Shown here: piece by piece, positions 1,494-39,700 of the stretch | How the letters are laid out: each line of letters starts with the position of its first letter | How positions within the stretch are numbered: the first letter of the stretch is position 1 | NCBI GenBank assembly: GCA_017440045.1 | Contig: JAFSIA010000011.1 | Span: 96-64,095, forward strand | Direction: 5' to 3' | Source: Lachnospiraceae bacterium | Lineage (GTDB): Bacteria; Bacillota; Clostridia; Lachnospirales; Lachnospiraceae | Length of the DNA: 64,000 nt | The notes under the pieces: generated by a model | Databases searched by the model: none | The model's input: the letters and a program-made list of their open reading frames with translations, nothing else | Told to the model about the DNA's origin: nothing | Made by a program: the position numbers and the translations under genes

Positions 1494-3002
<1,509 letters not shown>

Positions 3003-6510: not shown

Positions 6511-6939
6511 CTATCGCTCAATTCCCTTAATACGACGAGCATGTCTCTCCTCGTTTGAGAATGGTGTATCTAAGAAAGTATCTATAATCTTAAGTGCAAG
6601 TCCCGGTCCTACAACTCTTCCTCCTAATGCTAAAATATTTGCATCATTGTGAAGTCTTGTAGCCTCTGCCATAAAGCAATCCGTACATAACGCCGCACGA
6701 ATACCCTCGTATCTGTTAGCTGCAATAGAGATACCTATACCTGTACCACAAATAAGAATTCCTCTCTCACACTCACCTGCAAGAATAGCCTCTGCCACCT
6801 TCTTTGCATATTCAGGATAATCTACTGACTTCTCGTCATAGCTGCCGTAATCCTTAAACTCAAGCCCTCTCTTATTTAAGTGTGCTATAACCTCCTGCTT
6901 TAATTCGTAACCGCCCTGGTCGCTACCTAATGCTATCAT
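6511..6939 (-). CDS. rpiB: ribose-5-phosphate isomerase B
   Basis: 142 aa of the RpiB/LacAB family (GILICGTGIGISIAANR, NILALGGRV). Confidence 0.9.
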   Translation of the reverse strand: MIALGSDQGGYELKQEVIAHLNKRGLEFKDYGSYDEKSVDYPEYAKKVAEAILAGECERGILICGTGIGISIAANRYEGIRAALCTDCFMAEATRLHNDANILALGGRVVGPGLALKIIDTFLDTPFSNEERHARRIKGIER

Positions 6940-8507: not shown

Positions 8508-11057
8508 TTAATCTGCAAAATTCTTTTCTGTCAATATCTTATATCCGTCCTCATCCTTTTTGCTTCCAAAAAGTTTTTTAAGACTAAACTTATTTGCATC
8601 CTTTATAGCTGCATCAATGAGCTGTTCTACGTGGTTTTTGTGTACTACTAATGTAATGGCACGTAGCTGGTCAATCTTTGCACTTAATGCCAATGTTCCC
8701 ATCTCGTCTATGACATAGCCACACTCTTTTGCATATTCCTTCGCAATATCAGCCCAATCCTTTATCTTATTTACTTTTATGTCTATAAGATTAGGGAACT
8801 GATTATAACCCTCAGGAACCTTTGAAAGGAATCCTTCTGCCAAAGATTTCTCATCCTCAAAGATAACAACTCTTGGCTTTCCTTCCTCCTTAAGCTTGTC
8901 TATAAACTCTGTAAATACATCAATATTTACATCTGAAACTCTCTCGATAAGCACGTCGCTTCCTGCCAAAACTTCAAGAAGTGAATCCATAGATTTGTCA
9001 TTTAAGTTAATTCCCTTAATCTTGGCAATCTTCTGGTCACGTCTTTGCATTATTTTATTAGCAAGCTTGATGACATCTATGGCAAGAGTAGTCTTTCCAC
9101 TCTTTACCTCACCTTTGACAAATATAAACTTAACAGGCTCTGCTCCGCCTTTTAAAACAGACTGCATTACCTTTAATATCTGCTTATCTAAGCCCTGAAC
9201 TCCTGTAAACTTAGCGATGAATGCCTTGATTTCTCTCTTGGCGATTTCGGACTGCTTCTTTCTAGGATCCTCGGTGACTACCGGCTGCACAACAGGTTCC
9301 TCCTCTTCTTCATCTTCTTCGCTATCGTCATCTATATCTTCGCTGCCTTCGTCTTCCTCGTCATCATCTTCGTACGACTGGTCAACCTCTTCCGGTTCTT
9401 CCATAAGGACTTCTTCAGCAGCTTCCTCTAACTCTTCTATAGCTTCCGACTCTTCAGATTCTTCTATTTCATTCTTTAAATCAAACATAACAGGTCCACT
9501 CTCCTGCTGATCAGATTCAGCATCTTCGCTGTGTTCCTCATTTGTAGCTATGTCTTCTTCATCCATTTCCTCTAATGCTTCTTCTATGGCTTCCTCTATC
9601 TCTTCATCTAAATCTTCCTCGATATCCTCTGCCATATCCTCCACATCATCAGATATTTCATTTTCCTCAATTTCTTCGTCTATTTCTTCATCAATATCTT
9701 CTATGATTTCCTCTGCCACAGCTGATGCGAGAGCAGATACTTCATCTTCTTCATCTTCTATATCTTCAAGCTCTTGGAAATCCTCATCTTCTATGTCAGG
9801 AACCTCCTCCTGTTCAGAGATTTCTTCCGAAACATCCACTGATATTTCCTCTGAGAGCTCCTCAGATTCAGCTACTTCCTCTGATTCAACCGTCTCCTCT
9901 AATCCAGCTACTTCCTCTGATTCAACTGTTTCCTCAGATTCAACACCTTCCTCTGCCTCTACAGCTTCTACGTTTTCTTCTGGTTCAGCTACCTCCTCAG
10001 GCACAACAGTTACTTCTGTCATATCTTCTGCAGGCTCACTTTTCGCCTGAATCTCGCCGGATTCAAACATAGCCAATACTTCCTCAAGACTCATCTGACC
10101 CTCTATCTGGTCATCTTCAGGCTGCTCTGCCTCCGCAGACTTTGGCAATGTTGGCTTGAAAATTTCTACTGTATTATCAAAAATGCTGCTTACACTCTTT
10201 GCAAGCTCCTTTTGAATATTCATAGTATCATAACTATTATTCTCAGAAAAATCTTTTACATGTATAGAATTTACATCTATATCCATCTCATGAACCTTAT
10301 CAAGTATTTCATTATCCTCTGGCTCGCGATTTTCTGGTTTTGCCTCTTCCTTCTCTGGAACCTGTTCTTCCTTTATCTCTACCTTTTCTGGCGCATCTTC
10401 CGAAACAGATGTAGCTGCCGGCACCTGTACAATACCTGCCTTCTTACTCTTTTGAGCCTCATATTTGAGCTTCTGGTTTTCTGATAATGGTACATAAAGC
10501 TGCTTAAGCTCCAATGCCTTTTCTACATACTTGCCATCTGCAAACCAAAGAATGATAGTGTCGCAAAGCTCCACGCACTTCTCGCTAAAATGCGCCTTGT
10601 GATAAAGCTTTGCAAGCTCATATGCCCATCTGTCATCCATATCTTCCTCGATAAATGTTTCCAATATCTTTATCTGGTTTTCGATGGACTCTCCCTTACC
10701 TTTTGCCATCTCATACTGAAGAATATACTTTCCGGCATCTCTAGGAGAATTATCTGTAAACTCCTCATAAAATTCCTGAGCCTCAGCCATGTCACCACGC
10801 TTCACAGACAATCTACACAAACGATAAGCAAGCTGTCTTCCCAGTCCTGTTTTTTCATACGCCAAAAGAAGGGCCTCTCTTGCCGCATCATACTTTCCAG
10901 CGATTTCATAAACATCTGCTGCCATAATAAGGAGCTGGTTTTCCCTAACCTTTCTCCATTCGATTCCGTCTGCTATCTTTACTGCAGTTGCAAAATCCTT
11001 CTTCTTCATCAGCTTTTTTATCTGTTCGATTTTAATATTGAATTCGTATTTATCCAT
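8508..11057 (-). CDS. 849-aa protein: N-terminal TPR-like helical repeats, ~385-residue poly-acidic (E/D) tract, C-terminal P-loop NTPase (AAA-like)
   Basis: The N-terminus has a TPR-like helix-pair pattern. Roughly residues 215-600 are dominated by E/D. The C-terminus has Walker A GEVKSGKTT and Walker B-like VVIFEDE. Confidence 0.8.
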   Translation of the reverse strand: MDKYEFNIKIEQIKKLMKKKDFATAVKIADGIEWRKVRENQLLIMAADVYEIAGKYDAAREALLLAYEKTGLGRQLAYRLCRLSVKRGDMAEAQEFYEEFTDNSPRDAGKYILQYEMAKGKGESIENQIKILETFIEEDMDDRWAYELAKLYHKAHFSEKCVELCDTIILWFADGKYVEKALELKQLYVPLSENQKLKYEAQKSKKAGIVQVPAATSVSEDAPEKVEIKEEQVPEKEEAKPENREPEDNEILDKVHEMDIDVNSIHVKDFSENNSYDTMNIQKELAKSVSSIFDNTVEIFKPTLPKSAEAEQPEDDQIEGQMSLEEVLAMFESGEIQAKSEPAEDMTEVTVVPEEVAEPEENVEAVEAEEGVESEETVESEEVAGLEETVESEEVAESEELSEEISVDVSEEISEQEEVPDIEDEDFQELEDIEDEEDEVSALASAVAEEIIEDIDEEIDEEIEENEISDDVEDMAEDIEEDLDEEIEEAIEEALEEMDEEDIATNEEHSEDAESDQQESGPVMFDLKNEIEESEESEAIEELEEAAEEVLMEEPEEVDQSYEDDDEEDEGSEDIDDDSEEDEEEEEPVVQPVVTEDPRKKQSEIAKREIKAFIAKFTGVQGLDKQILKVMQSVLKGGAEPVKFIFVKGEVKSGKTTLAIDVIKLANKIMQRRDQKIAKIKGINLNDKSMDSLLEVLAGSDVLIERVSDVNIDVFTEFIDKLKEEGKPRVVIFEDEKSLAEGFLSKVPEGYNQFPNLIDIKVNKIKDWADIAKEYAKECGYVIDEMGTLALSAKIDQLRAITLVVHKNHVEQLIDAAIKDANKFSLKKLFGSKKDEDGYKILTEKNFAD
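9863..9950. repeat. 36-nt period in-frame tandem repeat inside the acidic tract
   Basis: agctacttcctctgattcaac occurs at 9870-9890 and again at 9906-9926, with related flanks. It encodes EETVESEEVA(G/E)(L/S) units. Confidence 0.8.
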
Positions 11058-11151
11058 TTCAAAACCCTCTCATTTGTTTGGAACATTCACTGCACATAAC
11101 CTTTTTAACTATATCACAATAACAGCCTTTTGTCACCTAGCTTGCCACATT

Positions 11152-13821
11152 TTACATATCACCAAAAAGACTCGCCTGCTCAAATTCAAGTTTAGCATAA
11201 TCCATCTTTTCATTGTCAACGTGACTGCTGTAATCGACCACAACCGTCTGCTGACGACCATCTATAAGCTTTTGACCTAATATATAGTTCACATCAAATC
11301 TGCCTGTTATGGCCGGCGTCACACCTCTTGCGGGAACCACAAGCTGTACATTATTTGTCTTAAGCAGTTTAAAAATTGGCTCCCAGATATAAATATCTTT
11401 TGCTGCACCAAACGGATTATCGATAAAGATGACCTTTCTAAGTCCTGTGTCCTTATCTCTTGAATTGATTGATGCAATATAATTGATAATGGCAATAAGG
11501 AACTGTATATAAATACCCTGAGACTGACCGGTACTTCCTACTGCCTCCTCATATCTTAAATATCTGCTCTGCTCCTTTATACGCTCGCGTTTATAAAGGT
11601 TAAGCTTTATACCATTCATATCTGTAACAATAACAGAGAAAAGCTTCTTCCAAGACAATCTGCTCTTTATATATTTAATTCTCTCTGCTTCATTCTTCAT
11701 GTCGTCAGCCATCTTTGTTGTCTCATCAATATATTGAGACATCTTGAATTTGTACTGGTCCTCTTTAACGTATGGCACATTTAAATTGATAATGGAAATA
11801 ACTTCGTCATCCATAGTTATCTTTGACTGCTTTGGTAGTCTGTCCAGCTCATTTTTAATGTTTACACATGTCTGTATACACTGATTTTCAAAGTTATCCT
11901 TTATCTTTTCCATATCATCAATGCTCTTACCAACTCTGTCCTTTTCAAGCTCTAAGCATCTGCAAATTTCCTTTAACGACGCCATAAGTTCATCTGTTTC
12001 TCTCACATTAAGAGGCATTGACACACTTCTCTTCATCTCATCTGACAAGCCCTCTGCACCAAGCTTTCTCAATATATCAGAAAGCATTCCTCTCTCCTGC
12101 TCGAACTCTGATTTCTTATCAGATAAATCCTTTGTATACTTATCAAACTTCTCAAGTACTGTGCCTATAGTTTCCTCGAAATCCGCCTCTGCCATCGCGT
12201 ACTGGCTGTAATCCTCCTGCTTTGAGGCATATATGCCCGCTCTATCCATAACCTTTGCAACATCCTTCTTAAGGACATCATACTTACCTGCATTTTTCTG
12301 CGTAGCTAAAAGGGCTTCTCTAACCTTTTCCAACTCTCTTCCCACAGCATCTACCTGCAATTTCTTATCTTCGATAAAGGAAGCAAAATCGCCATTTTCC
12401 ACTGCAACCGGCGTATACTGGCCATATTTTTCTTCCATAGCCGCCTTGCCGTGAGCTATGGCACCCTCAAGTCTATCCTTGCGGCTTCTAAGCTTTGCAA
12501 TCTTTGCCACATAGGAGTCAAGCTTTGCCTTGGCATTCTCAATATTTTCCTTAAGTTCTAAAAGCTCTTCCTTCGATATCTCTCTGCCTGTAAGTGCCTC
12601 ATACTTAGCCTTTACATCCTCCACAAATAAGCCCTTGTAGTCTATAGCCTGCAATGACTTCTCCATAGCAATATCATAGTTTTCAACGAGCTTCTGTTTA
12701 TCAGAAATATCTGCGCTGTCACTTTCTAATGCGCCAATAAGACCTTTTACCCTTGATTCTAATTCCACATCAGACATGGCTGATACAGCATAATTGCCCT
12801 CTTTATAATATTTTCTATATGCACTAAGCTTGTTGTCACATAATTCCTTCTGCTTTTTAAGACCCTCTATATGTCTCTTTCTCTCCTTGGACTGGTTAAC
12901 CTCAGCCTCATATCTCGCCTTGGCATCATCAATTTCCTTTTCGAGCTTCTTTACCTTAACTGAAGCCATAGATAACTTTGAAGATACCTTCGACGCCTGT
13001 TCTATAAGCTCCCTAATAGATTCAAGCTCCTTTAACTCTCTCTCTCCATCTATAATACTACCCTCAAGAATAGTACTGCTTGAAGCAAAATCAGCTAAAG
13101 TCTTATCTATATCAGAAAGGTCTGCTTGCTTTTCAGACAGCTTTACTTCCAGCTCCTTTATAGCATTTCTAAGATAATCATAGTGTTCATTTGCCTCTTC
13201 AATCTGTGAAAGATACACAGCTTCATACTCTTTGGCAAAGTCATAATCATCCTGCAACAGTTTAACCTTCTCTGAAATACGCTCAAGCTTAAATGACAAA
13301 TCTTCTATCTGGCTGACAGTTTTTGTTATCTCTTTTTCAATCAACTTCTCATCTGTGAAAAGCTTACTGTCACCCATAACAAACATCATATTCATATTGT
13401 CCATAATATGGCCTGTGCCCTCAATAGCCTTAATGGATATAACCGGCACAGCATAGTCACCAAGCTCCAACTCACTTAATCTGTCATCAGAAATAATAGT
13501 CTGATAATCTCTTAATACAACAATACTATATGGAAGCACAGGGATTCTGTGAAGAATATCCTCTCGCTCTGAGGCACTTCTCCCTTTGAGATAATCAGCA
13601 CCATACATAACAGCATCGCCATGGTATCTTTCCATATATTCCATAACTTTGCCTGCTTCCTTTGCAACACCTACCGGACATCCAGTCTTTAGCTGCTCTA
13701 CGTACACACGCTTATATCCCAAGCTATCATTATATGACTGCTCCTCAAGCATAGCATCTTTGCTTCTAAGCTTAATGCTTTCGATAAGTGACTTAAGGCT
13801 ACTTTCCCCATAGATTTCCAT
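11152..13821 (-). CDS. MukB/JetC-like SMC-family ATPase, C-terminal segment (coiled coil + C-terminal head)
   Basis: 889-aa ORF with a long E/K/L-rich heptad-like sequence. The C-terminal head has the signature-like GSTGQSQG and Walker B VIFIDNPFG (11407-11433). The ATG at 13819-13821 lies one codon after an in-frame TAG. Confidence 0.75.
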   Translation of the reverse strand: MEIYGESSLKSLIESIKLRSKDAMLEEQSYNDSLGYKRVYVEQLKTGCPVGVAKEAGKVMEYMERYHGDAVMYGADYLKGRSASEREDILHRIPVLPYSIVVLRDYQTIISDDRLSELELGDYAVPVISIKAIEGTGHIMDNMNMMFVMGDSKLFTDEKLIEKEITKTVSQIEDLSFKLERISEKVKLLQDDYDFAKEYEAVYLSQIEEANEHYDYLRNAIKELEVKLSEKQADLSDIDKTLADFASSSTILEGSIIDGERELKELESIRELIEQASKVSSKLSMASVKVKKLEKEIDDAKARYEAEVNQSKERKRHIEGLKKQKELCDNKLSAYRKYYKEGNYAVSAMSDVELESRVKGLIGALESDSADISDKQKLVENYDIAMEKSLQAIDYKGLFVEDVKAKYEALTGREISKEELLELKENIENAKAKLDSYVAKIAKLRSRKDRLEGAIAHGKAAMEEKYGQYTPVAVENGDFASFIEDKKLQVDAVGRELEKVREALLATQKNAGKYDVLKKDVAKVMDRAGIYASKQEDYSQYAMAEADFEETIGTVLEKFDKYTKDLSDKKSEFEQERGMLSDILRKLGAEGLSDEMKRSVSMPLNVRETDELMASLKEICRCLELEKDRVGKSIDDMEKIKDNFENQCIQTCVNIKNELDRLPKQSKITMDDEVISIINLNVPYVKEDQYKFKMSQYIDETTKMADDMKNEAERIKYIKSRLSWKKLFSVIVTDMNGIKLNLYKRERIKEQSRYLRYEEAVGSTGQSQGIYIQFLIAIINYIASINSRDKDTGLRKVIFIDNPFGAAKDIYIWEPIFKLLKTNNVQLVVPARGVTPAITGRFDVNYILGQKLIDGRQQTVVVDYSSHVDNEKMDYAKLEFEQASLFGDM

Positions 13822-13824
13822 AAG

Positions 13825-14067
13825 CTACTTAGCCTTAGACTCCACCTCTGAAAGTCTTGTCTTTGTATCAATATTATCGCTTAGAGCCTTATTCAGTCTG
13901 TCCATCTCCACATTCATATCGTGAATTGCATATTCAAGCTCATGCTTTTTCTCTAATGAAGCATTTACACTATCCCTATTTTTCACAAGAAGTGTCTTAG
14001 CCTCATTTAGCTTAGCTTTACCTCTCTCTATTTCACCGCGGACATCTGATACCATATAAAGGTCCAA
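13825..14067 (-). CDS. 80-codon coiled-coil fragment lying in the same frame between the two halves of the SMC-like gene
   Basis: It is in the same reading frame as 14113..15594 and 11152..13821 and is bounded by in-frame TAG codons at 14113-14115 and 13825-13827. The ORF-track start is a TTG. Independent translation is doubtful. Confidence 0.35.
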   Translation of the reverse strand: MDLYMVSDVRGEIERGKAKLNEAKTLLVKNRDSVNASLEKKHELEYAIHDMNVEMDRLNKALSDNIDTKTRLSEVESKAK

Positions 14068-14112
14068 ACTTCCCTTTCTCTCAGCTATCTCCCTATTAAG
14101 GTCTGCCTCCTG

Positions 14113-15594
14113 CTACCTCAGGTCATTTACAAGATATTCATTTACAGCCTTCTCACCCTGGCTATTTCTTATGCTTTCAGACAGCTCATCCAATAGCTGT
14201 GACTCCATAGCAAGAATTCGCTCTTCCTTTGTTATCTCGTTATCAATAAATTGCTGCTGCTTGCATATTCTCTCCCACACCTGGCCTACTGCCTCTGTTA
14301 CCTGGGTAAGAAGCTCTCCCTTATCCTTTAGACATGAATCGATAAGCTCTCTCATCTCATCACGCTGACTCTTGTAATAAACATAATCAGCGTAATCATT
14401 GATACTCTCCTTTAATGTAAGCTCCTCATTAGCTTCCTTTAAATCGATAGACGCTAAGCCCTGCTCACTTATAAGTTCCTCAATGTCCTTTGAAAGGTCC
14501 ATAGCTTCAGCTTCATTTCCACTGATTTTCGCACTATCAATAAGACTCTCAATCTGGTTTTTCTCATCGTTGAGTGCCTGTTCCTTATCCTTTAAAACAA
14601 TTGCTTCCTGCTCATCCTTAAGGCTCATATATTCCAGAGCATAGAAGCATTTTAAAATGCTCTCGTTTATATCTTCCCTGCCGAAATAAAGCTGCTTAAT
14701 AGACTGAACTCTTGATGCAAAGCCATCAATAACTTCAATCTGTCTGTCAAAGCTCTGTATATCTTCCTTCTTTTTAGCAAGCTCCAATAGCTTGTCCTTA
14801 ATATCAAGAAGTGTCTTTGCCATATAATCAGATTCGCCTTCGCTATCAGTCTGATTGACAAAGGATTTTTGTATAATTTCCTCTATGAGCAAATCCTCTA
14901 CAACCTTTCTGGTTGTCTTGTAATTTGTCTCAAAATATGTTCTAACGTGACCCTCAGTTTTATTGATACCTCGGATTATTTCCCATTCGCTCTCATAGAG
15001 ACCGTAATTCGCAATAAATCTCTGATAGTCACCCTTTCTCTCAAAAATCTTAATCTCAAGACTTAAATCCTTCTTCTCCAACTCTCGAAGATACGCCTTT
15101 AAGCCATTGTAAGTAATCCTCTCCTTGCCGTTTGAAAGGGGAAGATTTTTAATATCATTATCATTAAACTCTCGATAAAAAATTACATAGTTAAAATACT
15201 CTATTGCTGCGTTTTCCTTAACAGGGCCTGCCGCCATCTCCTGACCGTCGTCAGCTGCCGCATCATCCTTGGCTTTTCTTGCACAAAAGCCTGTAAGCAT
15301 ATACTTGTAGTTATTCTTTACATGGGCATCACTGAGTCTCCACTCAATAAGTGAGTGGATAGTCTTACTGCCATCTGATGTTCTAAAAAGCTTCTCTATT
15401 GGCTGCTTCTCATCTAATGTACAATTTGGTATAAGATTCTGCAAAAGAAGAAGCATAAGCACACTTTTTCCTCCACCATTTGCCAAATCATAAATGGTGT
15501 TTTTGCAGGAAAAACGCATAAGAAAATCGTCATAATACTGTGTGCCGAAGTTGTATTTTACATTATTTACACGAATTCTGTTAATGTGTGGCAT
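14113..15594 (-). CDS. MukB/JetC-like SMC-family ATPase, N-terminal segment (N-terminal head + coiled coil)
   Basis: 493-aa ORF beginning MPHINRIRVNNVKYNFG, with Walker A DLANGGGKSV (about 15463-15480) followed by coiled-coil-like sequence. The start overlaps the upstream ORF by 14 nt. Confidence 0.75.
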   Translation of the reverse strand: MPHINRIRVNNVKYNFGTQYYDDFLMRFSCKNTIYDLANGGGKSVLMLLLLQNLIPNCTLDEKQPIEKLFRTSDGSKTIHSLIEWRLSDAHVKNNYKYMLTGFCARKAKDDAAADDGQEMAAGPVKENAAIEYFNYVIFYREFNDNDIKNLPLSNGKERITYNGLKAYLRELEKKDLSLEIKIFERKGDYQRFIANYGLYESEWEIIRGINKTEGHVRTYFETNYKTTRKVVEDLLIEEIIQKSFVNQTDSEGESDYMAKTLLDIKDKLLELAKKKEDIQSFDRQIEVIDGFASRVQSIKQLYFGREDINESILKCFYALEYMSLKDEQEAIVLKDKEQALNDEKNQIESLIDSAKISGNEAEAMDLSKDIEELISEQGLASIDLKEANEELTLKESINDYADYVYYKSQRDEMRELIDSCLKDKGELLTQVTEAVGQVWERICKQQQFIDNEITKEERILAMESQLLDELSESIRNSQGEKAVNEYLVNDLR

Positions 15595-16297
15595 CGTCTT
15601 TTTCTCCTCTTAAAATCTCGTACAAACGTCCCTTGTAGCTCTCAAAATAATTTTCTATAAGTGCCTTGAATTTATCCTTTGGATAGTATCTGCCCTCCGA
15701 CTCAAGCATAAGTCCCTCTGCTGTCAAAAAGTTAAAAACGAGCTTTACAAAACCGGCCTTTGAACCTCTTGATGCTCTGATGGAAATATCTTCTCCGGAT
15801 ACAACCGGCATATCCTCCCAGACCAATGCCAGCTCTTTAAAGCTTCCTGCCTCTACCTCATCTACCGCAAGCACCGACAGATTGCTTATGATTCCTGAAA
15901 GTGTAGAATCAACACTGGCTATTATATCCTCCTGCTTTACATACTCCACGTATGTATAATTTGCCGAATCGTTATAAAACATTGTGATAATGTTGTATAT
16001 GATAAAATAACACAAATAGAGCTCTCTATTGAGCTTTACACCAATGGCTTTTTTAAGCTCTTCATTGGTATAACCAAAGGTTTTGTTATTCTCTCCCGGA
16101 CTTATGTACAAGCCATAATTATGTTCGAATATGTTGATATTTAATTTCTTTAAAATAGTTTCCACCATATCATAGACTTCGCTGTTGTTCTGATACTCCT
16201 GATATAAGCTGGCATTCTCGCCATTTCTGTCAACTGCTCTGCCTGTTATAAGCTCAGAAACTATATCTAATGCTCTCTCAAGATTTCTGTTTGTCAT
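15581..16297 (-). CDS. 238-aa protein in the MukE/JetB (KITE) position of the triad
   Basis: Size and gene order match (about 500 aa, then about 240 aa, then SMC-like), and it is translationally coupled to the ATPase gene. I recognise no motif directly. Confidence 0.5.
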   Translation of the reverse strand: MTNRNLERALDIVSELITGRAVDRNGENASLYQEYQNNSEVYDMVETILKKLNINIFEHNYGLYISPGENNKTFGYTNEELKKAIGVKLNRELYLCYFIIYNIITMFYNDSANYTYVEYVKQEDIIASVDSTLSGIISNLSVLAVDEVEAGSFKELALVWEDMPVVSGEDISIRASRGSKAGFVKLVFNFLTAEGLMLESEGRYYPKDKFKALIENYFESYKGRLYEILRGEKDDATH

Positions 16298-16309
16298 AAG
16301 CTCTCCTTC

Positions 16310-17833
16310 TTACGCTACCCTCTGGAAATATATATTTGAAATCTCAAATATTCCCTCCAGACTCACCTTGTCATCATCATCGAATGTTAAGCTAAATGCC
16401 AATTCCGACATACCCTTTGCAGCCTCCTTTAGCTCAGCCTCAAAGAATGTATCTGTGTCCTTAGCCACCTCATCTATATCGTAACTCTTCTTTTGGCACA
16501 TATGTACCAACATAGAATAGTAATCTCCATTTTTATATACACCTTCAAAAATAGTTGATAAATGCTCGTTGAAGCTTCTTAAATCAAAGCCCTCTCCAAC
16601 CTGGCATCCACTTAGCTTATCAAGCAATATTTTTATAAGTGTAACGTAGTTGCTGCTGATACGCTGCTCCTCTACCTCGTCCTCGTAGATATAGGTTACA
16701 GCCGTTGCATTTTCCTTTACCTTTTCACCCTTCTCATCACTGGCAGGCTTTGCCATGAGCAGCCTGTCAATTGAAGTGAGTGAAAATTGCTTTTTTGTAT
16801 TCAAATTAAGAATAGGGATAATCATTGATTCAAGCATCTGACTATCACCCTTATTCATCATAGTTCTAAGTGCATCCTTGAAATTAAAGCTTCTTCTAAG
16901 CTTTGAGAACTTGGCTCCCGATATAATTTCATCAGCCTTTATCTGCAAGTCCGTACACGCCGCCAATAACTCCGAATGCTTTGTTATAGCCTTTTTAAGC
17001 TCTGCCTCCAAATAGAAAATCTCAGATGATGTATCAGTATTTTCTGCATCCCTGTCACCTAATGATTCAACTCGCTTTGCTGCCTCTCGCACAAGCTCCA
17101 TATTTCTCACAAAGAGCTTTTGCTCATCCTCGAACCAACGCATTCCTGTATTTACAAATTCCTCGTATGCTCTGGCACCCTCAAATACATCATAGCTTAA
17201 GATATTTAGTACCTCATTTTTTCTGGCTTTAAGTCTGCCAACCTCACTGTTGATTCGCTTTATGACCTCGATACCACCTCTGAAATTGCTGGCTGCAATC
17301 ATTTTAGACAAGAGAACCTGTGCCACACTGATAGAGCTCTCATCCTTTATTTCCTTTGTATCAAGATAAAACTCTATAGCATCAGACGTAATATAATAAC
17401 AGATAACATCATCCTTTATTCTACTGTCTATAAGCTTCATTCGAACTGTTTTCTGTTTTTTATCTGCCGGGTCAAAATATGAGTAAGAAAAAGGTCTACC
17501 ATCATTTTTAATCTTATCAAAAATATATGCAGAAAGCTCTGCTTCCTCCTCACTATCAATGGCAAGCATAAAATCTCTTCTATAGATATCATGGACAAAG
17601 CTCTTGTATTCCTCGTAGGTTACATCCTTCTCGCGGAAGTTATTTTCTTCAATAAAAAAGCGCAATACTGCCATCAAAATATAACCCATATCCAGCTGCT
17701 CATAACGGCCTCCCGCAAACTGGGAGAATGCACCGTCTGTCAGCTTGAAGTATGGGTAATACTTCTTGATGTTCAGCATACGCTCACTATGGTCCTGTAT
17801 AATATCTCTCGTCAGAATATATTCTTCTGCCAT
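16310..17833 (-). CDS. 507-aa protein in the MukF/JetA (kleisin) position of the triad
   Basis: Size and gene order match. It starts 39 nt downstream of the recR stop and ends 12 nt before the next ORF. I recognise no motif directly. Confidence 0.5.
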   Translation of the reverse strand: MAEEYILTRDIIQDHSERMLNIKKYYPYFKLTDGAFSQFAGGRYEQLDMGYILMAVLRFFIEENNFREKDVTYEEYKSFVHDIYRRDFMLAIDSEEEAELSAYIFDKIKNDGRPFSYSYFDPADKKQKTVRMKLIDSRIKDDVICYYITSDAIEFYLDTKEIKDESSISVAQVLLSKMIAASNFRGGIEVIKRINSEVGRLKARKNEVLNILSYDVFEGARAYEEFVNTGMRWFEDEQKLFVRNMELVREAAKRVESLGDRDAENTDTSSEIFYLEAELKKAITKHSELLAACTDLQIKADEIISGAKFSKLRRSFNFKDALRTMMNKGDSQMLESMIIPILNLNTKKQFSLTSIDRLLMAKPASDEKGEKVKENATAVTYIYEDEVEEQRISSNYVTLIKILLDKLSGCQVGEGFDLRSFNEHLSTIFEGVYKNGDYYSMLVHMCQKKSYDIDEVAKDTDTFFEAELKEAAKGMSELAFSLTFDDDDKVSLEGIFEISNIYFQRVA

Positions 17834-17872: not shown

Positions 17873-18469
17873 CTACAGCTCCGTTCTGCCCTCCAAGGCA
17901 CGAAGAAGTGTAATCTCGTCAATGTATTCCAGGTCACCTCCAACCGGAACACCGCTGGCTATTCGACTCACCTTTATACCTGTAGGTTTAACCAGCTTAG
18001 ATATATAAACTGCTGTAGCCTCGCCCTCAACACTTGAGTTTGTCGCCACAATAATCTCATCTACATCACCGCGAAGTCTCTCCATAAGCTCCTTTAAACG
18101 AATATCATTTGGACCTATGCCAAGCATTGGTGATATTGCCCCATGAAGCACATGGTAAACTCCATCAAACTTACCTGTTCTCTCATATGCCGCCATGTCT
18201 CTTGTCTGTTCAACAACCATAATAACCTTATGGTTTCTCTTAGTGCTCTCACAAATAGGACAATATTCCCTGTCTGTAAGGGTACAGCAGGACTTACAAT
18301 ACTTTACATTCTTCCTTGCTGTGACAATGGCAGATGCCAGGCTTTCTGCCTGTTCCTTAGGCATATTTATAACATGAAATGCAAGTCTTCCCGCAGACTT
18401 GGCGCCAATACCGGGAAGCTTTGCAAACTCTTCAATCAATTTTGATATATGACTGCTATAGTAATCCAT
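17873..18469 (-). CDS. recR: recombination protein RecR
   Basis: 198 aa with helix-hairpin-helix [14 protein letters not shown], a C4 zinc finger ([16 protein letters not shown]) and a Toprim region. Confidence 0.95.
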
Positions 18470-18819
18470 TAGAAAGGAAATCCTCCTCCGAGACCGCCTG
18501 TAATCTTAGCCATCTGCGCCTGTGAAACCTTCTCCATCTCACGTAAAGCTTCATTTGTAGCCGCTACGATTAAATCCTGAAGCATCTCTACATCATCTGG
18601 GTCTAAAACCTCTGGGTCAATCTCTACAGACTTAACTTCCTTCTTACCTGTTACAGTTACCTTAACAGCACCGCCACCTGCAGCTGCTGTTATCTCCTTC
18701 TCTTCAAGCTCCTTTGTAGTCTCCTCCATCTGCTTCTGCATCTTCTGAGCCTGCTTCATTAAATTGTTCATATTTCCTGGCATACCCATGCCACCTGGAA
18801 ATCCACCTCTTCTAGCCAT
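18469..18819 (-). CDS. ybaB: nucleoid-associated protein YbaB/EbfC
   Basis: 116 aa ([18 protein letters not shown]...). Sits in the classic dnaX-ybaB-recR arrangement. Confidence 0.92.
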
Positions 18820-18854: not shown

Positions 18855-18923
18855 CGCGTTAGCTGTATGCTCCGTTTCTTCGAAACTCCCGCATACAGAT
18901 AATTCATAACTTCGAGCTAACGC
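18855..18923 (-). repeat. structured intergenic element, copy 1 (between dnaX stop and ybaB start)
   Basis: Nested inverted repeats: gcgttagc/gctaacgc, tgtatgc/gcataca and gtttc-ttc-gaaac. The core gtatgctccgtttcttcgaaactcccgcatac (18865-18896) recurs at 37566-37597 and, in degenerate form, at 39701-39731. Confidence 0.7.
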
Positions 18924-20491
18924 TAAAAATCTTCCTCTTCAATATTATCAATATTAATCTTTTTTCTTATTTCTACAAAATGGTCCTCGAAATGCTGTCC
19001 ACTTTCAAGTAACTTTACATCAAGCTTCACTGACTTTCCGATTACATCCGAAATAGCGTTTTCAATATCAGCTACTGTATCCGGTCTACTTATGGCGCCA
19101 AAGTTAACTCCCTCAGTAAAGACTATGGATAATCTGTTATCACCTGTAGCTGTCAGCTTTCCTTCTGAAATGCTGGCCCTGACTAATGGTCCAAGCTTCA
19201 TAACAACCTTATCCCAATTGTTAACAGCCTGCTGTATCTCTTCCGTAACTGCTGGTTCCAGCACCTTTCTAACAGGTCTCTCCGGTTCTCTGGCTGCTCC
19301 ATTAGTTGCTGCCTCAGGCATCATCTTTACCGGAACACCATCCTTAACCTTTTTTTCAAGGTCACTTATTCTGTTAACAAGAGAGCCTAAATCGTTTTCC
19401 ATTGCCGGTTTTGTAAGCTTTATGAATGCCACTTCCACAAGAACTCTCTTCCCTGTAGCATATCTGATTTGGTTTCCAAGCTCCGACATAACCCTTATAT
19501 ATCTCATAAGAGTTTCCAGCTCTACCATTTTTGCTTCTTCCTTCAATGCCGCCAATCTCTCAGCGGACATATCCAGCATTTCCTCTGCTGTATCTGAGCT
19601 TTTCACCAGCATAAGATTCCTTAAATACCATGTAAAATCTGTGACAAACTGCGCCAAATCTCTGCCTAGCAATATAATCTCATCAAGCTTATTTACACAG
19701 CCCAAGGTATCTCCGTCAATTATCAGTCTTAGCATCTGACTAAACACTTCCGTGTCGACTGCTCCCAAAACCTCCAGCACATTTTCATAGGTCAGCTTCT
19801 GGCCCATATAAAATGATATACATTGGTCCAGAAGACTCAAGGCATCTCTCATAGCTCCATCTGCCACTTTTGCTATATACTTAAGAGCCTTTTCCTCCAC
19901 CTCTATAGATTCTCTCTCCGTCAGTTCTTTCAATCTGTCAGTTATAGTTTCTACTGTGATTCTCTTAAAATCATATCTCTGACATCTGGAGAGTATTGTA
20001 ACAGGTATCTTATGCGCCTCTGTTGTGGCTAAGATGAACATAACATATGATGGCGGCTCCTCCAATGTCTTTAACAGGGCATTAAATGCTCCAATAGACA
20101 GCATATGAACCTCGTCGATTATATACACGCGGTACTTGCCCTCTGTAGGCGAATACTGCACCTCATCTCTAATCTCACGAATATTATCTACACCATTGTT
20201 TGATGCAGCATCAATCTCCACCACATTCATGGATGCTCCCGCACTAATAGCCTTGCACATAGCACACTGATTACATGGTCCACCATCTACAGGACTTTCG
20301 CAGTTTACTGCCTTCGCCAATATCTTGGCGATTGTTGTTTTTCCTGTACCTCTGGTTCCACAAAACAGATACGCATGTCCAATTCTCTCTGCCTTAATCT
20401 GGTTTTTCAAGGTCGTAACAATATGATCCTGACCCTTAACTTCACCAAATTCACCAGGCCTAAATTTTCTGTAAAGTGCTGTATAAGACAT
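18923..20491 (-). CDS. dnaX: DNA polymerase III subunit gamma/tau
   Basis: 522 aa with Walker A GTRGTGKTT, the zinc module CESPVDGGPCNQCAMC and an SRC motif (TILSRCQRYDF). Confidence 0.95.
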   Translation of the reverse strand: MSYTALYRKFRPGEFGEVKGQDHIVTTLKNQIKAERIGHAYLFCGTRGTGKTTIAKILAKAVNCESPVDGGPCNQCAMCKAISAGASMNVVEIDAASNNGVDNIREIRDEVQYSPTEGKYRVYIIDEVHMLSIGAFNALLKTLEEPPSYVMFILATTEAHKIPVTILSRCQRYDFKRITVETITDRLKELTERESIEVEEKALKYIAKVADGAMRDALSLLDQCISFYMGQKLTYENVLEVLGAVDTEVFSQMLRLIIDGDTLGCVNKLDEIILLGRDLAQFVTDFTWYLRNLMLVKSSDTAEEMLDMSAERLAALKEEAKMVELETLMRYIRVMSELGNQIRYATGKRVLVEVAFIKLTKPAMENDLGSLVNRISDLEKKVKDGVPVKMMPEAATNGAAREPERPVRKVLEPAVTEEIQQAVNNWDKVVMKLGPLVRASISEGKLTATGDNRLSIVFTEGVNFGAISRPDTVADIENAISDVIGKSVKLDVKLLESGQHFEDHFVEIRKKINIDNIEEEDF

Positions 20492-20650: not shown

Positions 20651-21157
20651 CTACTTTCTAACATGATACCAATCATCATCTGCCCTCTTTACATCTACAT
20701 CATAATCCTCTTTCTTTATTCCCGAAACATCCTCAGGTTTCCCATCTGGAGAATATGTAAGCGAACTATAAAGTCCATCCATTACAAAAGATATTCTATT
20801 ACCTGTAATTCTAATATAGTAAAGATGTTTTTCAGGAAAAGCATTATTACATACTGTTTCTAAAGCGTCTTCGACTTCATTTGAACACTCCAATATATGT
20901 TGTGTATCACAATCTTCAAAATAATGCAGATTATTTTCCTTATCATACCCCACCCATAATCCTTTATTCTCTTCGTTTGGATACATTTCTGCTATATAAT
21001 CTTTTACTATATTAAATTCTTTTGCATATTCTTCATATTTTGCCGCCACATTCCAGTGAAAAATATCATACATATACCACACAGAATATATGACTATAGA
21101 ACACAATATAAATAATATAATTATATGTGGTTGCATTATCTTTTTTAAAATTTTCAT
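20651..21157 (-). CDS. hypothetical membrane-anchored protein (168 aa)
   Basis: N-terminal TM helix (HIIILFILCSIVIYSVWYMY). A GGGGGGAGAA Shine-Dalgarno-like sequence precedes the ATG. I recognise no domain. Confidence 0.6.
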   Translation of the reverse strand: MKILKKIMQPHIIILFILCSIVIYSVWYMYDIFHWNVAAKYEEYAKEFNIVKDYIAEMYPNEENKGLWVGYDKENNLHYFEDCDTQHILECSNEVEDALETVCNNAFPEKHLYYIRITGNRISFVMDGLYSSLTYSPDGKPEDVSGIKKEDYDVDVKRADDDWYHVRK

Positions 21158-21314: not shown

Positions 21315-21344
21315 AAAAAAGTTGCAATGAATACTCACTGCAAC
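21315..21344 (-). terminator. orphan Rho-independent terminator-like hairpin (minus strand) in the 450-nt pfkA upstream region
   Basis: On the minus strand: gttgcagtgagtattcattgcaac followed by tttttt. No annotated minus-strand gene ends here. Confidence 0.45.
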
Positions 21345-21553
21345 CGAACTATCATAGTAACTTCATAAAGAAGAACCTTAGACTCCAAGTTTTGCGCCAT
21401 TACATTTCTGTAATTATGCCCGTTTATTTCACAAACAAATTAATTCATTTACATTTTACCTTATATTCTTAAATATGTCAATTTTCATTGTCCCTTATTG
21501 GTTATCCATAGTGAACACACATACCGAATTGTCTGCCACGTGCAAAATGTTCC

Positions 21554-22780: not shown

Positions 22781-25700
22781 TTATTCATTTACCTGCATCT
22801 TCTTTATGTAAGCTGATACTAAAGCTGCAACTGCTGCTAAAAGTAAAATTGTTACATATGTTGATACGTTTGAGCTGTCTCCTGAATCTGTGCCTGATGC
22901 AAATGGAATATCCATCTCTACATCTTCCTCTTCTTCTGGCTGTGCATCCGTCTCTGGCTCTGCGTCTGTTTCTGGCTCTACTGGAGCAAATGGAACGTCA
23001 ATTTCTACATCCTCTTCTGGCTCTTCATCTGTCTCTGGCTGAGATGGAACGATTGGCTCTGATGGTGCAAGTGGAATCTCTGGAATGATTTCCTCTTCCT
23101 CGATAACGATTTCTGCTGTCTTACCAACGATTGTTACGTCTGCTGTTACCTTAGAAACATCTCCTGACTCTACTCTCCATCCTGAGAATGAGAAGCCTCC
23201 TGCTGGGTTGTATACTACGTCATCCACATTTACTACTGTACCATAAGGAACTACAGATGATGTATACTCTACACCGTCAACAAAATATGTTACTGTGTAT
23301 GTTAACTGATTATATACTACATTGATTACTACGTCCTCACATGGCATTGTTCCTGAAACTACTGCCTGTGCGTCATCATTTAACTCATAGCCTTCCATTA
23401 CTGGCGACTCATAAATATATCCTTCAAATGCATCTACAACTGTCTCTACTGAATCTACAAGTGCATTTCCTTCACTATCAACATAATTGATTGTAAGGTT
23501 GTACTGCTGTACTGTTAATGTTCCCTCTAATGTAATATCTGTTGTTACATTTGATACATCTCCCTCGCCTGCTACTGCAAATCCAGAGAAATCATAGCCT
23601 GCAGGTACTTCATACTCGTACGCACTAGCTGCGCTGCCGTATGGGATACCTGTCTCAACATTTACTACTTCACCATCTACTGCATATGTTACTGTAAATG
23701 TCTTAACTTCTGTAGCTCCAACGATTACTACATCTGATGTTACATTGTCCATATCTCCGTATGCTACTGTCCACTCTACAAAATTATCAGAATCCTTGAG
23801 GTCATCTGCCTCTGGAGCACCGATTAATTCTAATGCTGAACCATACTCTACTACCTGTGTCTCACCATACTGCTCATCATATAAGTAGTATGTTACATTA
23901 AATACCTTTGTTGAAATCTGTCCGCTTACTACAATATCAGATGTTACTGTTACTACATTGCTTGCACTTCTTGCCATAAGAGACCATCCTGAGAACTCTA
24001 CTGACTGGTCAAGCTCCATATAATCGTTAATATCTACGCTGTTGATATCAAACTCTGTTCCGTATGGAACTTCAATTGTATCTACTGTTGATGCGTTACC
24101 ATCTTTATCATATACAACGTATGTAATATCAAAATACTGTAAATCATACTCAACTGTTACTGTTACATTGCCATATGGCATTGTGCCTGCTACTACATTT
24201 GCAGAACCTTCTGCTAAGTCATATCCCTCGATTACTGGTGACTCTACGCTGTACTCTGTTGTTGCTGCAACCTGCTCTGTCACTGTCTTTGCAATTGTCT
24301 CGCCTGTAGCTGCATCTACATAATTTACTGTTAATGTATACTTCTGGTTAGCGATGATACCATCTACATGCCATCCATCACTCTCTGACTTAATTACATA
24401 CCACTTAATTGTCTCGCCATCCTTAAGCTGGATTCCGAAATCTTCTGCTGAAGGTGCATCTACTAATCTCTCTGCAACTAATGCATCATTGTTTGCCACC
24501 TTCTCAAACTTGCTGATTGTACCAGCTACACCCTTTGAATAATTAGCAGAAGGGTAGCTTGCAAGCTCGCTTGGCTGCTCTAAATCTCTGTTAAGTACAT
24601 AGTACATAACCTTAACCTGATTTGCCTTGTATGAAGCTGTAAATGTCATATCCTCTGTAACACTTACTAAATCATCTGTTGTGTAATCACCGTCTGCTAC
24701 CCACTTATCAAATGAGTACTTTGTCCAAGATGCAGCTGTTGCACCTGTCTCATCTTCAATCTTTAAGTCAGCCTTCTTTGGAGCAGCTTCCTCATCAGCC
24801 TGAGCACCATACTCATAAACCTTCTCTGAAATTACTGTTCCATCTTCTGCCTTAAATGTTACTGTAAATGTCTTAACCTGTGTTGTTGCTTCGATAACAA
24901 CATCTGATGTTATCTCGTTTGCATTACCCTCTGTTACTGACCAGTTCTTAGCGAACTCCTTATTCTCTGGAAGAGTATATCCATCATACTCTACTGCTAC
25001 TGATGAACCGTACTCAACAAATTTTTCCTCGTATACAGTTACGCCATCTACCTTATATGTTACTGTAAATGTCTTAACCTCTGTGCTACCATTGATTGTC
25101 ATATCAGACTTAACTGTCACTGACTCTTCGTCCCAGCCTAAAAATGTCTTATTTACATCTGGTGTGTACTCAACCTTTGACAAATCAATTACTGTTCCAT
25201 AGTCAACTGTCTCTGTCTTAACTGTCTCTCCATCTACTTTATATGTTACTGTAAATGTCTTTGTAGAAGTTGTTGCTGTGATTACCACATCCTTGTCTAC
25301 TGACTGAAGATTTGCATCTATTGTCTCTACTGTCCAACCTGAGAACTCCTTGCTCTCATCTTCTACTGCATATATATATGAATCAAAATCAGAGATATCT
25401 GTTCCGGCTTTAACTGTCTTTGTACAAACAGTGTTGCCATCTACCTTATATGTAATTGTGTATTCTGGAATAGCTGAATATACAGCAACGAACTCAAGTC
25501 CGCCTTCCACCATTGCTACCTTATCCCCTGCCTGATAAAGCTTGTCTGAATCATCACCTACAAGATCCCATCCATCGAATGTAAATCCTTCCTTTGCTGG
25601 AGCTTCCTTAACTGTTACGCCAGCCTCTACCTCGTATGAATACTCGTCTGTAACCTTTGTGTAATCCTCATCTACACTGTACTTTACATTAAGGAAAAGC

Positions 25701-26344
25701 TCTGCGATTTCCTCATATGTAAGCTTTATATCAATACCTGTGTTATCATCACAGTTATTTTTCGCACACCACTTATAGAAGCTGTATCCTGAATTCTTGT
25801 AGTTTGGTACATCATATATATCAAACTCAACTTCCTTCTCGTCAACTCCGTTTGTAAGAGTTGCCTTTACATGGAATACTGTATCTGTTGTAAACTTGTA
25901 ATTGTGGCTAGATATATATTCCCAACCATTTTTCTGGCTCTTAGTTCTGCCTGTATAATTTACAGAATTTTCAACAGCTGTCTTAGTTGTTGTTGTTCCA
26001 TAATTTGTTGTACCATAATCTTTACCGAAAATGAAAAAGCCATGCCATCCATCGCATTCATTATCATCACATTCATTGCAATGCTCACCATCACAATCGT
26101 CATCACCACAGTGATTACATACTGTAACTTCCATGTATGTCTTATATGTAACTACTGGCTTCTTCTCAAGATAATAGCCACCATTTTCATCTGCATTCTC
26201 TGTCTCAATAGCAATGTCCATATGAGTATATGTTTCATTATTATTGTTGTTATAATTTGGTCTTGCAAATGCTGTTGTCATTGTGCTAAGAACTGTAACC
26301 ATTGCAATAAATACTGCAAGAGTTCTCTTTAACTTTCCTTTCAT
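22781..26344 (-). CDS. 1187-aa cell-surface adhesin-like protein: signal peptide, Cys/His/Asp-rich insert, ~8-9 B-repeat (Listeria-Bacteroides repeat-like) modules, two MucBP-like modules, acidic Pro-rich spacer, C-terminal TM anchor
   Basis: The ATG at 26344 follows AAGGAGGAT. The signal peptide is MKGKLKRTLAVFIAMVTVLSTMTTAFA. KTFTVTYKVDG-type modules recur. MucBP-like units are YTLTVNYVD...ESPVIEGYDL and YNLTINYVD...ESPVMEGYEL. The C-terminus is YVTILLLAAVAALVSAYIKKMQ. Confidence 0.85.
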   Translation of the reverse strand: MKGKLKRTLAVFIAMVTVLSTMTTAFARPNYNNNNNETYTHMDIAIETENADENGGYYLEKKPVVTYKTYMEVTVCNHCGDDDCDGEHCNECDDNECDGWHGFFIFGKDYGTTNYGTTTTKTAVENSVNYTGRTKSQKNGWEYISSHNYKFTTDTVFHVKATLTNGVDEKEVEFDIYDVPNYKNSGYSFYKWCAKNNCDDNTGIDIKLTYEEIAELFLNVKYSVDEDYTKVTDEYSYEVEAGVTVKEAPAKEGFTFDGWDLVGDDSDKLYQAGDKVAMVEGGLEFVAVYSAIPEYTITYKVDGNTVCTKTVKAGTDISDFDSYIYAVEDESKEFSGWTVETIDANLQSVDKDVVITATTSTKTFTVTYKVDGETVKTETVDYGTVIDLSKVEYTPDVNKTFLGWDEESVTVKSDMTINGSTEVKTFTVTYKVDGVTVYEEKFVEYGSSVAVEYDGYTLPENKEFAKNWSVTEGNANEITSDVVIEATTQVKTFTVTFKAEDGTVISEKVYEYGAQADEEAAPKKADLKIEDETGATAASWTKYSFDKWVADGDYTTDDLVSVTEDMTFTASYKANQVKVMYYVLNRDLEQPSELASYPSANYSKGVAGTISKFEKVANNDALVAERLVDAPSAEDFGIQLKDGETIKWYVIKSESDGWHVDGIIANQKYTLTVNYVDAATGETIAKTVTEQVAATTEYSVESPVIEGYDLAEGSANVVAGTMPYGNVTVTVEYDLQYFDITYVVYDKDGNASTVDTIEVPYGTEFDINSVDINDYMELDQSVEFSGWSLMARSASNVVTVTSDIVVSGQISTKVFNVTYYLYDEQYGETQVVEYGSALELIGAPEADDLKDSDNFVEWTVAYGDMDNVTSDVVIVGATEVKTFTVTYAVDGEVVNVETGIPYGSAASAYEYEVPAGYDFSGFAVAGEGDVSNVTTDITLEGTLTVQQYNLTINYVDSEGNALVDSVETVVDAFEGYIYESPVMEGYELNDDAQAVVSGTMPCEDVVINVVYNQLTYTVTYFVDGVEYTSSVVPYGTVVNVDDVVYNPAGGFSFSGWRVESGDVSKVTADVTIVGKTAEIVIEEEEIIPEIPLAPSEPIVPSQPETDEEPEEDVEIDVPFAPVEPETDAEPETDAQPEEEEDVEMDIPFASGTDSGDSSNVSTYVTILLLAAVAALVSAYIKKMQVNE

Positions 26345-26584
26345 TGTGTAATCCTCCTTGTCTCTGACATCTCTGAAATATTTTATCTGATTTACATCCT
26401 TATCATACAAAATAACTTCAATACCACCCACCCCACTTTAGGGGTATTTTTCCAAACCCCTTTCCCCCCTCCTTTTTCAAATTAGGGGGGAGACTTTCGT
26501 ATTTCTGATAACAAAAAGTACATCTCTAAACACCAGATTTTCCGGCATTTAAAGATGTACTTTAAAAAATGTATTATTTTTTTT

Positions 26585-26849
26585 ACCACGCATCTACCGT
26601 TGTGCACTGCTCACAGACGTTACTAATGCAGTTAACTCAGCCCCGGTAACCTTACGGCACATGAAAGGTCTCTCTTAGTGCTGCTCCATTCCTGACCTGA
26701 CACGGTTCGAAAGTTTCCATTGCGCAAGACCAAGGCTTCAACGCCTCTTACAAAAGGCAGCTCTACAAGCAAATGCCCGAAGGTAGATATCACCCCTGCT
26801 AAAGCGGATTGCAGGTACAGGACACCGCTAACTTCCCAGCTGCGTGGAG
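26585..26849 (-). ncRNA. ffs: signal recognition particle RNA (long, Bacillus-type scRNA)
   Basis: The minus strand contains the domain IV sequence GUCAGGUCAGGAAUGGAGCAGCACUAAG. The 5' CCACGCA pairs with the 3' UGCGUGG. It has a consensus promoter and lies next to tadA, as in B. subtilis. Confidence 0.9.
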
Positions 26850-32040: not shown

Positions 32041-32092
32041 AATTTTCTTAGTTAACGAATTATAACACTTTATACGTTGGGAGGAGACACTT

Positions 32093-37534: not shown

Positions 37535-37563
37535 AACTGTCTTCCCTCTTTATATATGCTAAA

Positions 37564-37625: not shown

Positions 37626-37656
37626 CTACATTACTCATGCGGTTCACTCGTCAAAT

Positions 37657-37692: not shown

Positions 37693-37707
37693 ACATGACT
37701 CGTTTCT

Positions 37708-39657: not shown

Positions 39658-39700
39658 TATAAATCATTCCTTTCTCGTTTTTCGCTTATCCCTTGTGATT

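Follow-up and report, generated by a model that had tools for sequence, protein, structure and literature searches.

Why does a set of genes of the kind that builds condensin-like and plasmid-cutting complexes lie directly behind replication and recombination genes, and what might it do there if the nuclease gene is missing? The question is raised by a 64,000-nt stretch of DNA from a Lachnospiraceae bacterium (GCA_017440045.1, contig JAFSIA010000011.1, positions 96–64,095, forward strand), which we call the window and whose minus strand carries the gene order dnaX-ybaB-recR-jetA-jetB-jetC-P4. A preliminary description, made from the letters alone, had pointed to a condensin-like triad wired into the dnaX-ybaB-recR operon and followed by an unrelated protein. 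With moderate confidence, we read the locus as a four-gene module, jetA3-jetB3-jetC3-P4, which stands behind dnaX-ybaB-recR as a type III Wadjet derivative that has no nuclease, is inherited vertically, runs parallel to MksBEF and is probably directed at the chromosome. The genes of the module are as follows.

16310..17833, minus strand: jetA3-like kleisin gene, 507 amino acids (aa); PADLOC PDLC00560 JetA3, E = 2.4e-207
15581..16297, minus strand: jetB3-like gene, 238 aa, DUF6063, presumed KITE subunit; Pfam PF19539 (DUF6063), E = 2e-47; PADLOC PDLC00571 JetB3, E = 6.5e-105
11152..15594, minus strand: jetC3-like SMC-type ATPase frame, 1481 codons with two internal TAG; PADLOC JetC3 PDLC00581
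8508..11057, minus strand: P4, 849 aa, TPR/acidic linker/AAA+; conserved gene 94 nt after jetC

The triad belongs to the type III Wadjet families

The triad is the kleisin-like, DUF6063 and SMC-like set of the type III Wadjet families. The minus-strand frames of 507 and 238 aa reported earlier were both recovered, and residues 1–506 of JetA align to positions 1–508 of the 511 in its PADLOC profile, that is over the full length; 1155 homologs of JetA were found. An AlphaFold2 (AF2) model of JetA had a pLDDT of 71.9 and, when it was compared with the PDB by Foldseek, the top nine matches were all to MukF, the kleisin of MukBEF (best E-value 4.7e-4). TM-scores were low, as is expected for a flexible, multi-domain protein.

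Within the triad Pfam recognized the 238-aa protein alone (as DUF6063), and neither Pfam nor NCBIfam had a match for JetA3 or JetC3, so that the identification comes only from PADLOC together with DUF6063. No triad protein matched a Muk family of Pfam at E ≤ 0.1; the sole trace of the MukB family was a match to the PADLOC model JetC1, 'MukB-like', at E = 0.013. Profiles of JetA, JetB and JetC searched against PDB sequences gave no meaningful match beyond coiled coils. The condensin-like character proposed for the triad therefore holds in the form of a kleisin-like/DUF6063/SMC-like Wadjet set (PADLOC E-values of 1e-105 to 1e-275, and a JetA model that leads to MukF), but membership in the Muk families by sequence does not. 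Nor do the two small proteins form an undescribed family, as had been suspected, because they match JetA3 and JetB3 of PADLOC and, in the latter case, DUF6063 of Pfam.

JetC aligns to PDLC00581 (1473 positions) in two pieces, the N-terminal one covering positions 1–483 (E = 7.5e-222) and the C-terminal one positions 585–1470 (E = 9e-275). The three head motifs picked out in the preliminary description were all located:

15460..15489, minus strand: Walker A DLANGGGKSV, aa 36–45; N39, G42, K43 and S44 invariant and the rest nearly so among 82 homologs
11515..11538, minus strand: signature-like GSTGQSQG, aa 1353–1360; identical in 81 of 82 homologs, the exception being the canonical C. perfringens JetC3
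11407..11433, minus strand: Walker B-like VIFIDNPFG, aa 1388–1396 (Asp-Asn, not Asp-Glu); DNPF core invariant

In JetC3 an Asn stands where ABC/SMC ATPases carry the catalytic Glu of Walker B. Since all 83 sequences compared, that of the canonical C. perfringens type III system included, have hhhhDNPFG and not hhhhDE, this is a family trait rather than a defect of the window locus. Judged from the alignment, the catalytic base of JetC3 must lie elsewhere or hydrolysis must be unusual.

A jetD gene is absent and recR stands in its place

None of the six cluster proteins scanned matched the JetD models of PADLOC. With JetD3 of C. perfringens and the JetD of one in-clade relative (locus L067) as tblastn queries, neither the 64-kb window nor any of about 120 related loci gave a match, save L067 itself and the plasmid control; the related loci were covered to ±10 kb and the absence applies to that span. 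Both searches bear out the earlier remark that the window has no JetD. L067 is the sole in-clade locus with jetD (Pfam JetD_C, E = 5.5e-11), and there the gene lies directly upstream of jetA, as it does in the canonical type III system of the C. perfringens plasmid pJFP838A (NZ_CP013615.1), whose order is jetD-jetA-jetB(DUF6063)-jetC. Because the canonical jetD directly precedes jetA, recR in the window holds the place of jetD.

The block is conserved behind recR across Lachnospiraceae

The housekeeping genes that precede the triad, named as such in the preliminary description, have Pfam matches that agree with those names:

18923..20491, minus strand: dnaX, DNA polymerase III tau/gamma; heads the conserved block; Pfam DNA_pol3_delta2 (E = 2.6e-47), DNAX_ATPase_lid and DNA_pol3_gamma3
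18469..18819, minus strand: ybaB/ebfC nucleoid-associated protein; Pfam YbaB_DNA_bd (E = 2.2e-36)
17873..18469, minus strand: recR, with HhH, zinc finger and Toprim domains; Pfam Toprim_4 (E = 4.7e-23), RecR_HhH, RecR_ZnF and RecR_C

The spacing is tight, with 39 nt between recR and jetA, 12 nt between jetA and jetB, an overlap of 14 nt between jetB and jetC and 94 nt between jetC and P4; the first three of these figures had been given exactly. As had also been observed, no terminator-like hairpin is present in any intergenic gap from dnaX through jetC. The few minus-strand matches to such hairpins all fall within coding sequence, and the total of 12 is close to the 7.6 ± 2.6 expected from shuffling.

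A scan of one genome per species returned 309 genomes with a relative of JetA, and the best 80 were surveyed for synteny. Almost all of these 80 are Lachnospiraceae (Roseburia, Lachnospira, Butyrivibrio, Eubacterium species, Bovifimicola, Diplocloster and [Clostridium] fimetarium). In most of them dnaX...recR lies directly upstream of jetA and in nearly all P4 follows jetC, so most Lachnospiraceae species whose genomes were surveyed keep the linkage to recR, which it had been proposed to look for in related Clostridia. The arrangement as a whole, without a nuclease gene and with P4, is found in more than 100 related genomes. The jetC of the relatives is a single open reading frame (ORF) of 1452–1573 aa in every locus with a complete gene but one (L044, frameshift).

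Two further measures speak to the mode of inheritance. First, the identity of JetA to that of the window follows the identity of DnaX, with a Spearman coefficient of 0.87 over 72 loci. Second, the ratio of non-synonymous to synonymous substitution rates (dN/dS), computed on pairs with unsaturated synonymous sites, was 0.03–0.05 for JetA, 0.02–0.04 for JetB, 0.045–0.08 for JetC and 0.02–0.07 for P4, as compared with 0.03–0.09 for DnaX. Taken together, conserved synteny, the correlation of JetA with DnaX and the low dN/dS indicate that the jetABC–P4 block is vertically inherited across Lachnospiraceae, under purifying selection as strong as that on dnaX.

One alternative is that the module is still a Wadjet-type defence against plasmids or phages, its effector being either a nuclease encoded elsewhere or P4 itself, acting without cleavage by sequestering or silencing small circular DNA. 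Such sequestering or silencing has been proposed for Smc5/6. We consider this, the main rival explanation, unlikely. Its starting point is that the three proteins are bona fide members of type III Wadjet families and that the in-clade relative L067 retains jetD. It also draws on one clade (L008/9, L043, L050/64/75, L051, L054 and L083) in which the linkage to recR has been lost and the flanks are mutually unrelated in at least six contexts; jetABC and P4 remain together in all of them, the contexts are varied and not of the housekeeping kind, the AAA+ module has a canonical Walker A (GxPGxGKT), and the whole looks like a mobile defence cassette. Against the defence explanation, in most of the species genomes surveyed the block is vertical within a replication/repair operon and JetA tracks the divergence of DnaX. 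Wadjet systems are described as sporadic or patchy and fast-evolving (PMC10586767), whereas dN/dS here is as low as that of dnaX; the scattered occurrence through horizontal spread that defence systems typically show was not what we found (recR synteny, rho 0.87, dN/dS 0.02–0.08).

Next to the module, two related loci carry an additional gene pair. In a species at 80% JetA identity, at 19558–21206 of L002 and also in L005, a gene for an AbiLi/AriA-like ATPase (PADLOC, E = 5.4e-37) and a 177-aa gene lie directly after P4, as a small defence insert adjoining the module. This neighbour, too, may be counted in favour of a defence role.

P4 is a TPR/AAA+ protein that accompanies jetABC

The gene that follows jetC had been described as an unrelated TPR/acidic/P-loop protein. 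This proved not to be so: P4 comes after jetC in nearly all JetA-anchored loci with enough sequence downstream, and it accompanies jetABC even where recR and every other neighbour are different. Its parts are:

10440..11057, minus strand: N-terminal TPR solenoid, aa 1–206; AF2 pLDDT 92.8, 12 helices; Foldseek matches in the PDB to consensus TPR, MamA, EMC2 and the OGT TPR
9216..10439, minus strand: acidic low-complexity linker of variable length, about 40% Asp+Glu in close relatives, with 18/36-nt tandem repeats
8508..9215, minus strand: C-terminal AAA+ module of CbbX/SpoVK/EccA type, from a profile search of the PDB and the NCBIfam match of the L050 homolog
11108..11136, minus strand: sigma-70-like promoter match GTGACA-17-TATAGT, with TG, in the jetC–P4 spacer; a consensus match only

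A profile of the AAA+ module searched against the PDB matched CbbX (3zuh) at E = 3.9e-13 over profile positions 33–211 and EccA1 at 1.6e-7, and the P4 homolog of L050 matched the NCBIfam models cbbX_cfxQ (2.4e-16) and SpoVK (5.6e-12). Walker A is kept in the group to which the window belongs (GEVKSGKT in the window protein) and lost in about 40% of homologs, mainly in the Lachnospira group. At Walker B, DVLIER aligns with LFIDEA of CbbX such that Asp-Glu has become Glu-Arg, and the catalytic position is variable among homologs. Without the catalytic Glu of Walker B, and with Walker A lost in the Lachnospira group, the module probably works by binding or as a switch, and not as a motor.

P4 has no model in PADLOC or NCBIfam, and in Pfam it has only sub-threshold matches to TPR and P-loop families. 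Weak matches of its N-terminus to VRR_NUC and PDDEXK_9 (Pfam, E ~0.1) were rejected on the confident AF2 model, which is an all-helical TPR, and the Pfam and AF2/Foldseek analysis found no nuclease fold in P4. The missing nuclease domain and the missing PADLOC model both run counter to P4 being the effector of a defence system.

The family of the P4 N-domain is large, a threshold of E ≤ 1e-30 giving 1538 clusters out of 1.84 billion representatives, and whole proteins in relatives range from 668 to 1314 aa. For a metagenome scan anchored on P4 we used an alignment of 13 N-domain sequences, a 43-sequence version being too diverse; a search with the C-terminal domain alone gave only 10 close matches. 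In the loci found by the scan jetC lies directly upstream of P4 in about 33 of 42, and eight have recR and P4 without the triad. In a rough neighbour-joining tree these eight are spread over at least three positions between clades that have the triad, and this scatter suggests that jetABC has been lost repeatedly in the family. Both of the JetD-bearing loci, L067 and the canonical one of pJFP838A, are without P4. As jetABC and P4 are not separated in any of at least six contexts that are unrelated to one another, P4 is a probable, though not an obligate, partner of jetABC.

At 9577–9968 of the window the linker of P4 contains tandem repeats of 18/36 nt and of 9–24 nt. Most P4 homologs in databases are fragments of about 200–370 aa, possibly due to assembly breaks in this repetitive linker.

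The jetC of the window carries two in-frame TAG codons

The third frame of the triad had been reported as open over about 1480 codons, which implied that the ATPase gene is intact. It is not open: two in-frame TAG codons, overlooked in the preliminary description, interrupt 11152–15594.

14113..14115, minus strand: TAG at jetC codon 494; GAG (Glu) in the near-identical contig L001, a sense codon in 82/82 homologs
13825..13827, minus strand: TAG at jetC codon 590; AAG (Lys) in L001, Lys in 39/82 homologs and a stop in none

The TAGs divide the frame in three (493 aa, then 95 codons, then 889 aa), and because of them an ORF finder yields pieces of 493, 80 and 889 aa. L001 is an independent ENA contig of 9252 nt, 99.97% identical to the window, in which jetC is open to the end of the contig (882 codons). 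It differs from the window in three bases, namely those at 14115 (GAG to TAG), 13827 (AAG to TAG) and 16475 (M453I in JetA), so that both nonsense codons are specific to the window sequence. Either the window strain has recently suffered an inactivation of jetC, in keeping with the recurrent losses in the family, or the bases are wrong. With correct bases, the window strain would have no full-length JetC and the system would be off; the two TAGs would then mark an early stage of the loss of jetABC that has probably occurred several times in the family.

That the TAGs are sequencing or assembly errors, or changes introduced into the window sequence, with jetC intact in the organism, strikes us as possible but doubtful. 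The error explanation is helped by the comparison with an independent contig, which departs from the window at only three positions in 9252 nt, two of them the TAGs. The probability of at least two nonsense changes in jetC among three random substitutions is about 8e-4, which makes two such changes in one gene improbable under neutral drift, and a second stop adds no benefit once there is a first. All four isolated differences from other contigs alter a protein, among them H8Q in the GSDHGG motif of RpiB. Moreover, look-ups of the exact products in the gene collection found neither truncated JetC product, and no second carrier of the TAG alleles came to light. Look-ups of the same kind with metG and one further gene also gave nothing. 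On the other side, both TAGs are clean substitutions without indels, their sites are uncovered by independent contigs in a second sample and so stand uncontradicted, and inactivation is itself plausible since the family has probably seen repeated losses of jetABC.

Amber readthrough, by a suppressor tRNA, pyrrolysine or recoding, might instead give full-length JetC, perhaps conditionally. TAG is the codon at both interruptions, and TGA hardly serves as a stop in the window: about 30 of its credible genes end in TAA, about 17 in TAG and one in TGA (47827–48402). Yet those roughly 17 TAG-terminated genes are ordinary ones, recR among them, and the window has no tRNA gene. The interrupted sites read GAG and AAG in L001, and each of the 82 homologs has sense codons at them; recoding is thus not conserved. 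We regard readthrough as very improbable. The remaining TGA-terminated ORFs of the window are antisense artefacts, and related genomes do use TGA, for example as the stop of jetC.

On the other side of the locus, contigs L093 and L094 differ from the window in six bases over 12.9 kb. Five of the six lie within 26 nt of atpA (window 2624–2649), three of them synonymous and two, in adjacent bases, giving D124N; this looks like a small recombination patch. The RpiB substitution (window 6916, in rpiB, 6511–6939, minus strand) is the single difference there from two near-identical metagenome contigs; lying in a conserved motif, it is another sequence-specific change and potentially damaging. A third in-frame TAG, at 6511–6513, was rejected as an interruption, being the normal stop of rpiB with a deaminase gene next in the same frame.

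A possible role at the chromosome

We return to the nuclease-free, chromosome-directed derivative of Wadjet III that we favour. As a domesticated descendant that lost its nuclease, JetABC would load on the host chromosome and extrude or hold DNA loops without cutting plasmids, perhaps tied to replication or to RecFOR repair through co-expression with dnaX and recR. P4 may act as an adaptor or regulator, its TPR domain binding a partner peptide and its AAA+ module, which lacks the catalytic glutamate, serving as a nucleotide-dependent switch or oligomerizer. The long acidic tail could be a DNA mimic on the DNA-binding surfaces of JetABC; this is speculation, suggested only by the existence of a structure of MukEF with the phage protein gp5.9 (entry title only). 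A bolder form of the proposal would make JetABC-III and P4 a hitherto unrecognized, nuclease-independent, lineage-specific second 'condensin' of Lachnospiraceae, derived from a Wadjet III defence cassette, expressed along with the clamp loader, YbaB and RecR, and working at chromosomal forks or repair sites, with P4 as a dedicated loader or regulator that has a DNA-mimic tail and a pseudo-AAA+ switch; we offer it tentatively, as a possibility.

Several observations weigh against a chromosome-directed derivative. Activity on the chromosome is something we infer from three things only, namely the lost nuclease, a context of housekeeping genes and how selection has acted. Confidence in the JetA model is no more than moderate (pLDDT 72), with low TM-scores to MukF, and the JetB profile finds no solved KITE protein among PDB sequences, the KITE fold being presumed only. 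The absence of jetD is known over ±10 kb per locus, and a jetD elsewhere in these genomes is possible. P4 is not obligate, as [Clostridium] fimetarium has recR-jetABC without P4 and P4 also occurs without the triad, and the mutual exclusion of JetD and P4 is based on two JetD-bearing loci. Furthermore, jetABC is dispensable in some lineages, as the eight recR–P4 loci without the triad illustrate, and the window's own jetC is broken. A loss of function in a single strain, as in the window, is typical of defence genes and so also lends something to the defence explanation.

Comparison with known systems

With the type III Wadjet systems of C. perfringens pJFP838A and a B. thuringiensis representative, the window locus shares the families (JetA3, JetB3/DUF6063 and JetC3), the order and sizes of jetA-jetB-jetC, and the ATPase motifs including the unusual DNPF Walker B. 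Unlike them, it has recR in place of jetD, an extra conserved TPR/acidic/AAA+ gene downstream and, in the window, an interrupted jetC; and it is chromosomal, in a housekeeping setting, vertically inherited and under strong purifying selection, whereas they are patchy or plasmid-borne.

With MksBEF of Pseudomonas aeruginosa and with MukBEF the locus has in common a triad of kleisin, small subunit and SMC-like ATPase without a nuclease gene, and the predicted structure of JetA resembles MukF. MksBEF and MukBEF have been proposed to originate from Wadjet by loss of JetD (PMC10586767). In contrast to them, the triad of the window has no membership by sequence in the MukF, MukE or MukB families, comes from type III where theirs comes from type I-like Wadjet, and has P4 as a partner; its chromosome role is putative. 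P4, for its part, matches EccA, CbbX and SpoVK in the profile of its C-terminal AAA+ module and resembles EccA in having an N-terminal TPR domain. It differs from all three in an acidic linker of 300–900 aa between the domains and in a single AAA+ module without a catalytic Glu at Walker B and, in the Lachnospira group, without Walker A. Its genomic partner is an SMC-like complex, not the type VII secretion system or Rubisco of EccA and CbbX.

The protein families are already known; what is new is that the arrangement has no JetD and lies behind recR, together with the partner P4, the vertical inheritance and the strong constraint. In the searchable literature (full text) we found no description of a nuclease-free, recR-linked jetABC–P4 arrangement, and type III Wadjet is described as largely uncharacterized (bioRxiv 10.1101/2025.03.10.642339). 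The origin of MukBEF/MksBEF from defence systems has so far been inferred from one lineage. A second, independent case, in which type III JetABC lost its nuclease, became fixed in a replication/repair operon under selection of housekeeping strength and gained a new conserved partner, would make this transition directly testable, and in abundant, culturable gut bacteria (Lachnospira multipara, L. pectinoschiza, Roseburia relatives and Bovifimicola). For the annotation of defence systems, matches to the JetA3, JetB3 and JetC3 hidden Markov models in Lachnospiraceae should not be taken to mean a plasmid-cutting Wadjet. P4, finally, brings to notice a large protein family without annotation.

Neighbouring and other features of the window

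On its upstream side dnaX adjoins a 168-aa ORF (20651–21157, minus strand) that has no match in Pfam or NCBIfam. This ORF is preceded by a c-di-GMP-I riboswitch at 21336–21430 (minus strand, 58.9 bits), with a terminator-like hairpin at 21345–21320. The large signal recognition particle RNA lies about 6 kb upstream of dnaX (26586–26847, minus strand), and between the two are pfk and the gene for a 1216-aa Flg_new/MucBP surface protein; the ORF of the latter (22781–26431) was considered as a candidate Smc and rejected on that identity.

Elsewhere in the window a Clostridiales-1 small RNA (37557–37713, minus strand) comes directly after metG (37708–39663). Two long proteins, encoded at 32066–34132 (plus strand) and 60862–62943 (minus strand), begin with sigma-70 regions 2 and 4, to which large C-terminal extensions are fused, in one case with BspA-type leucine-rich repeats.

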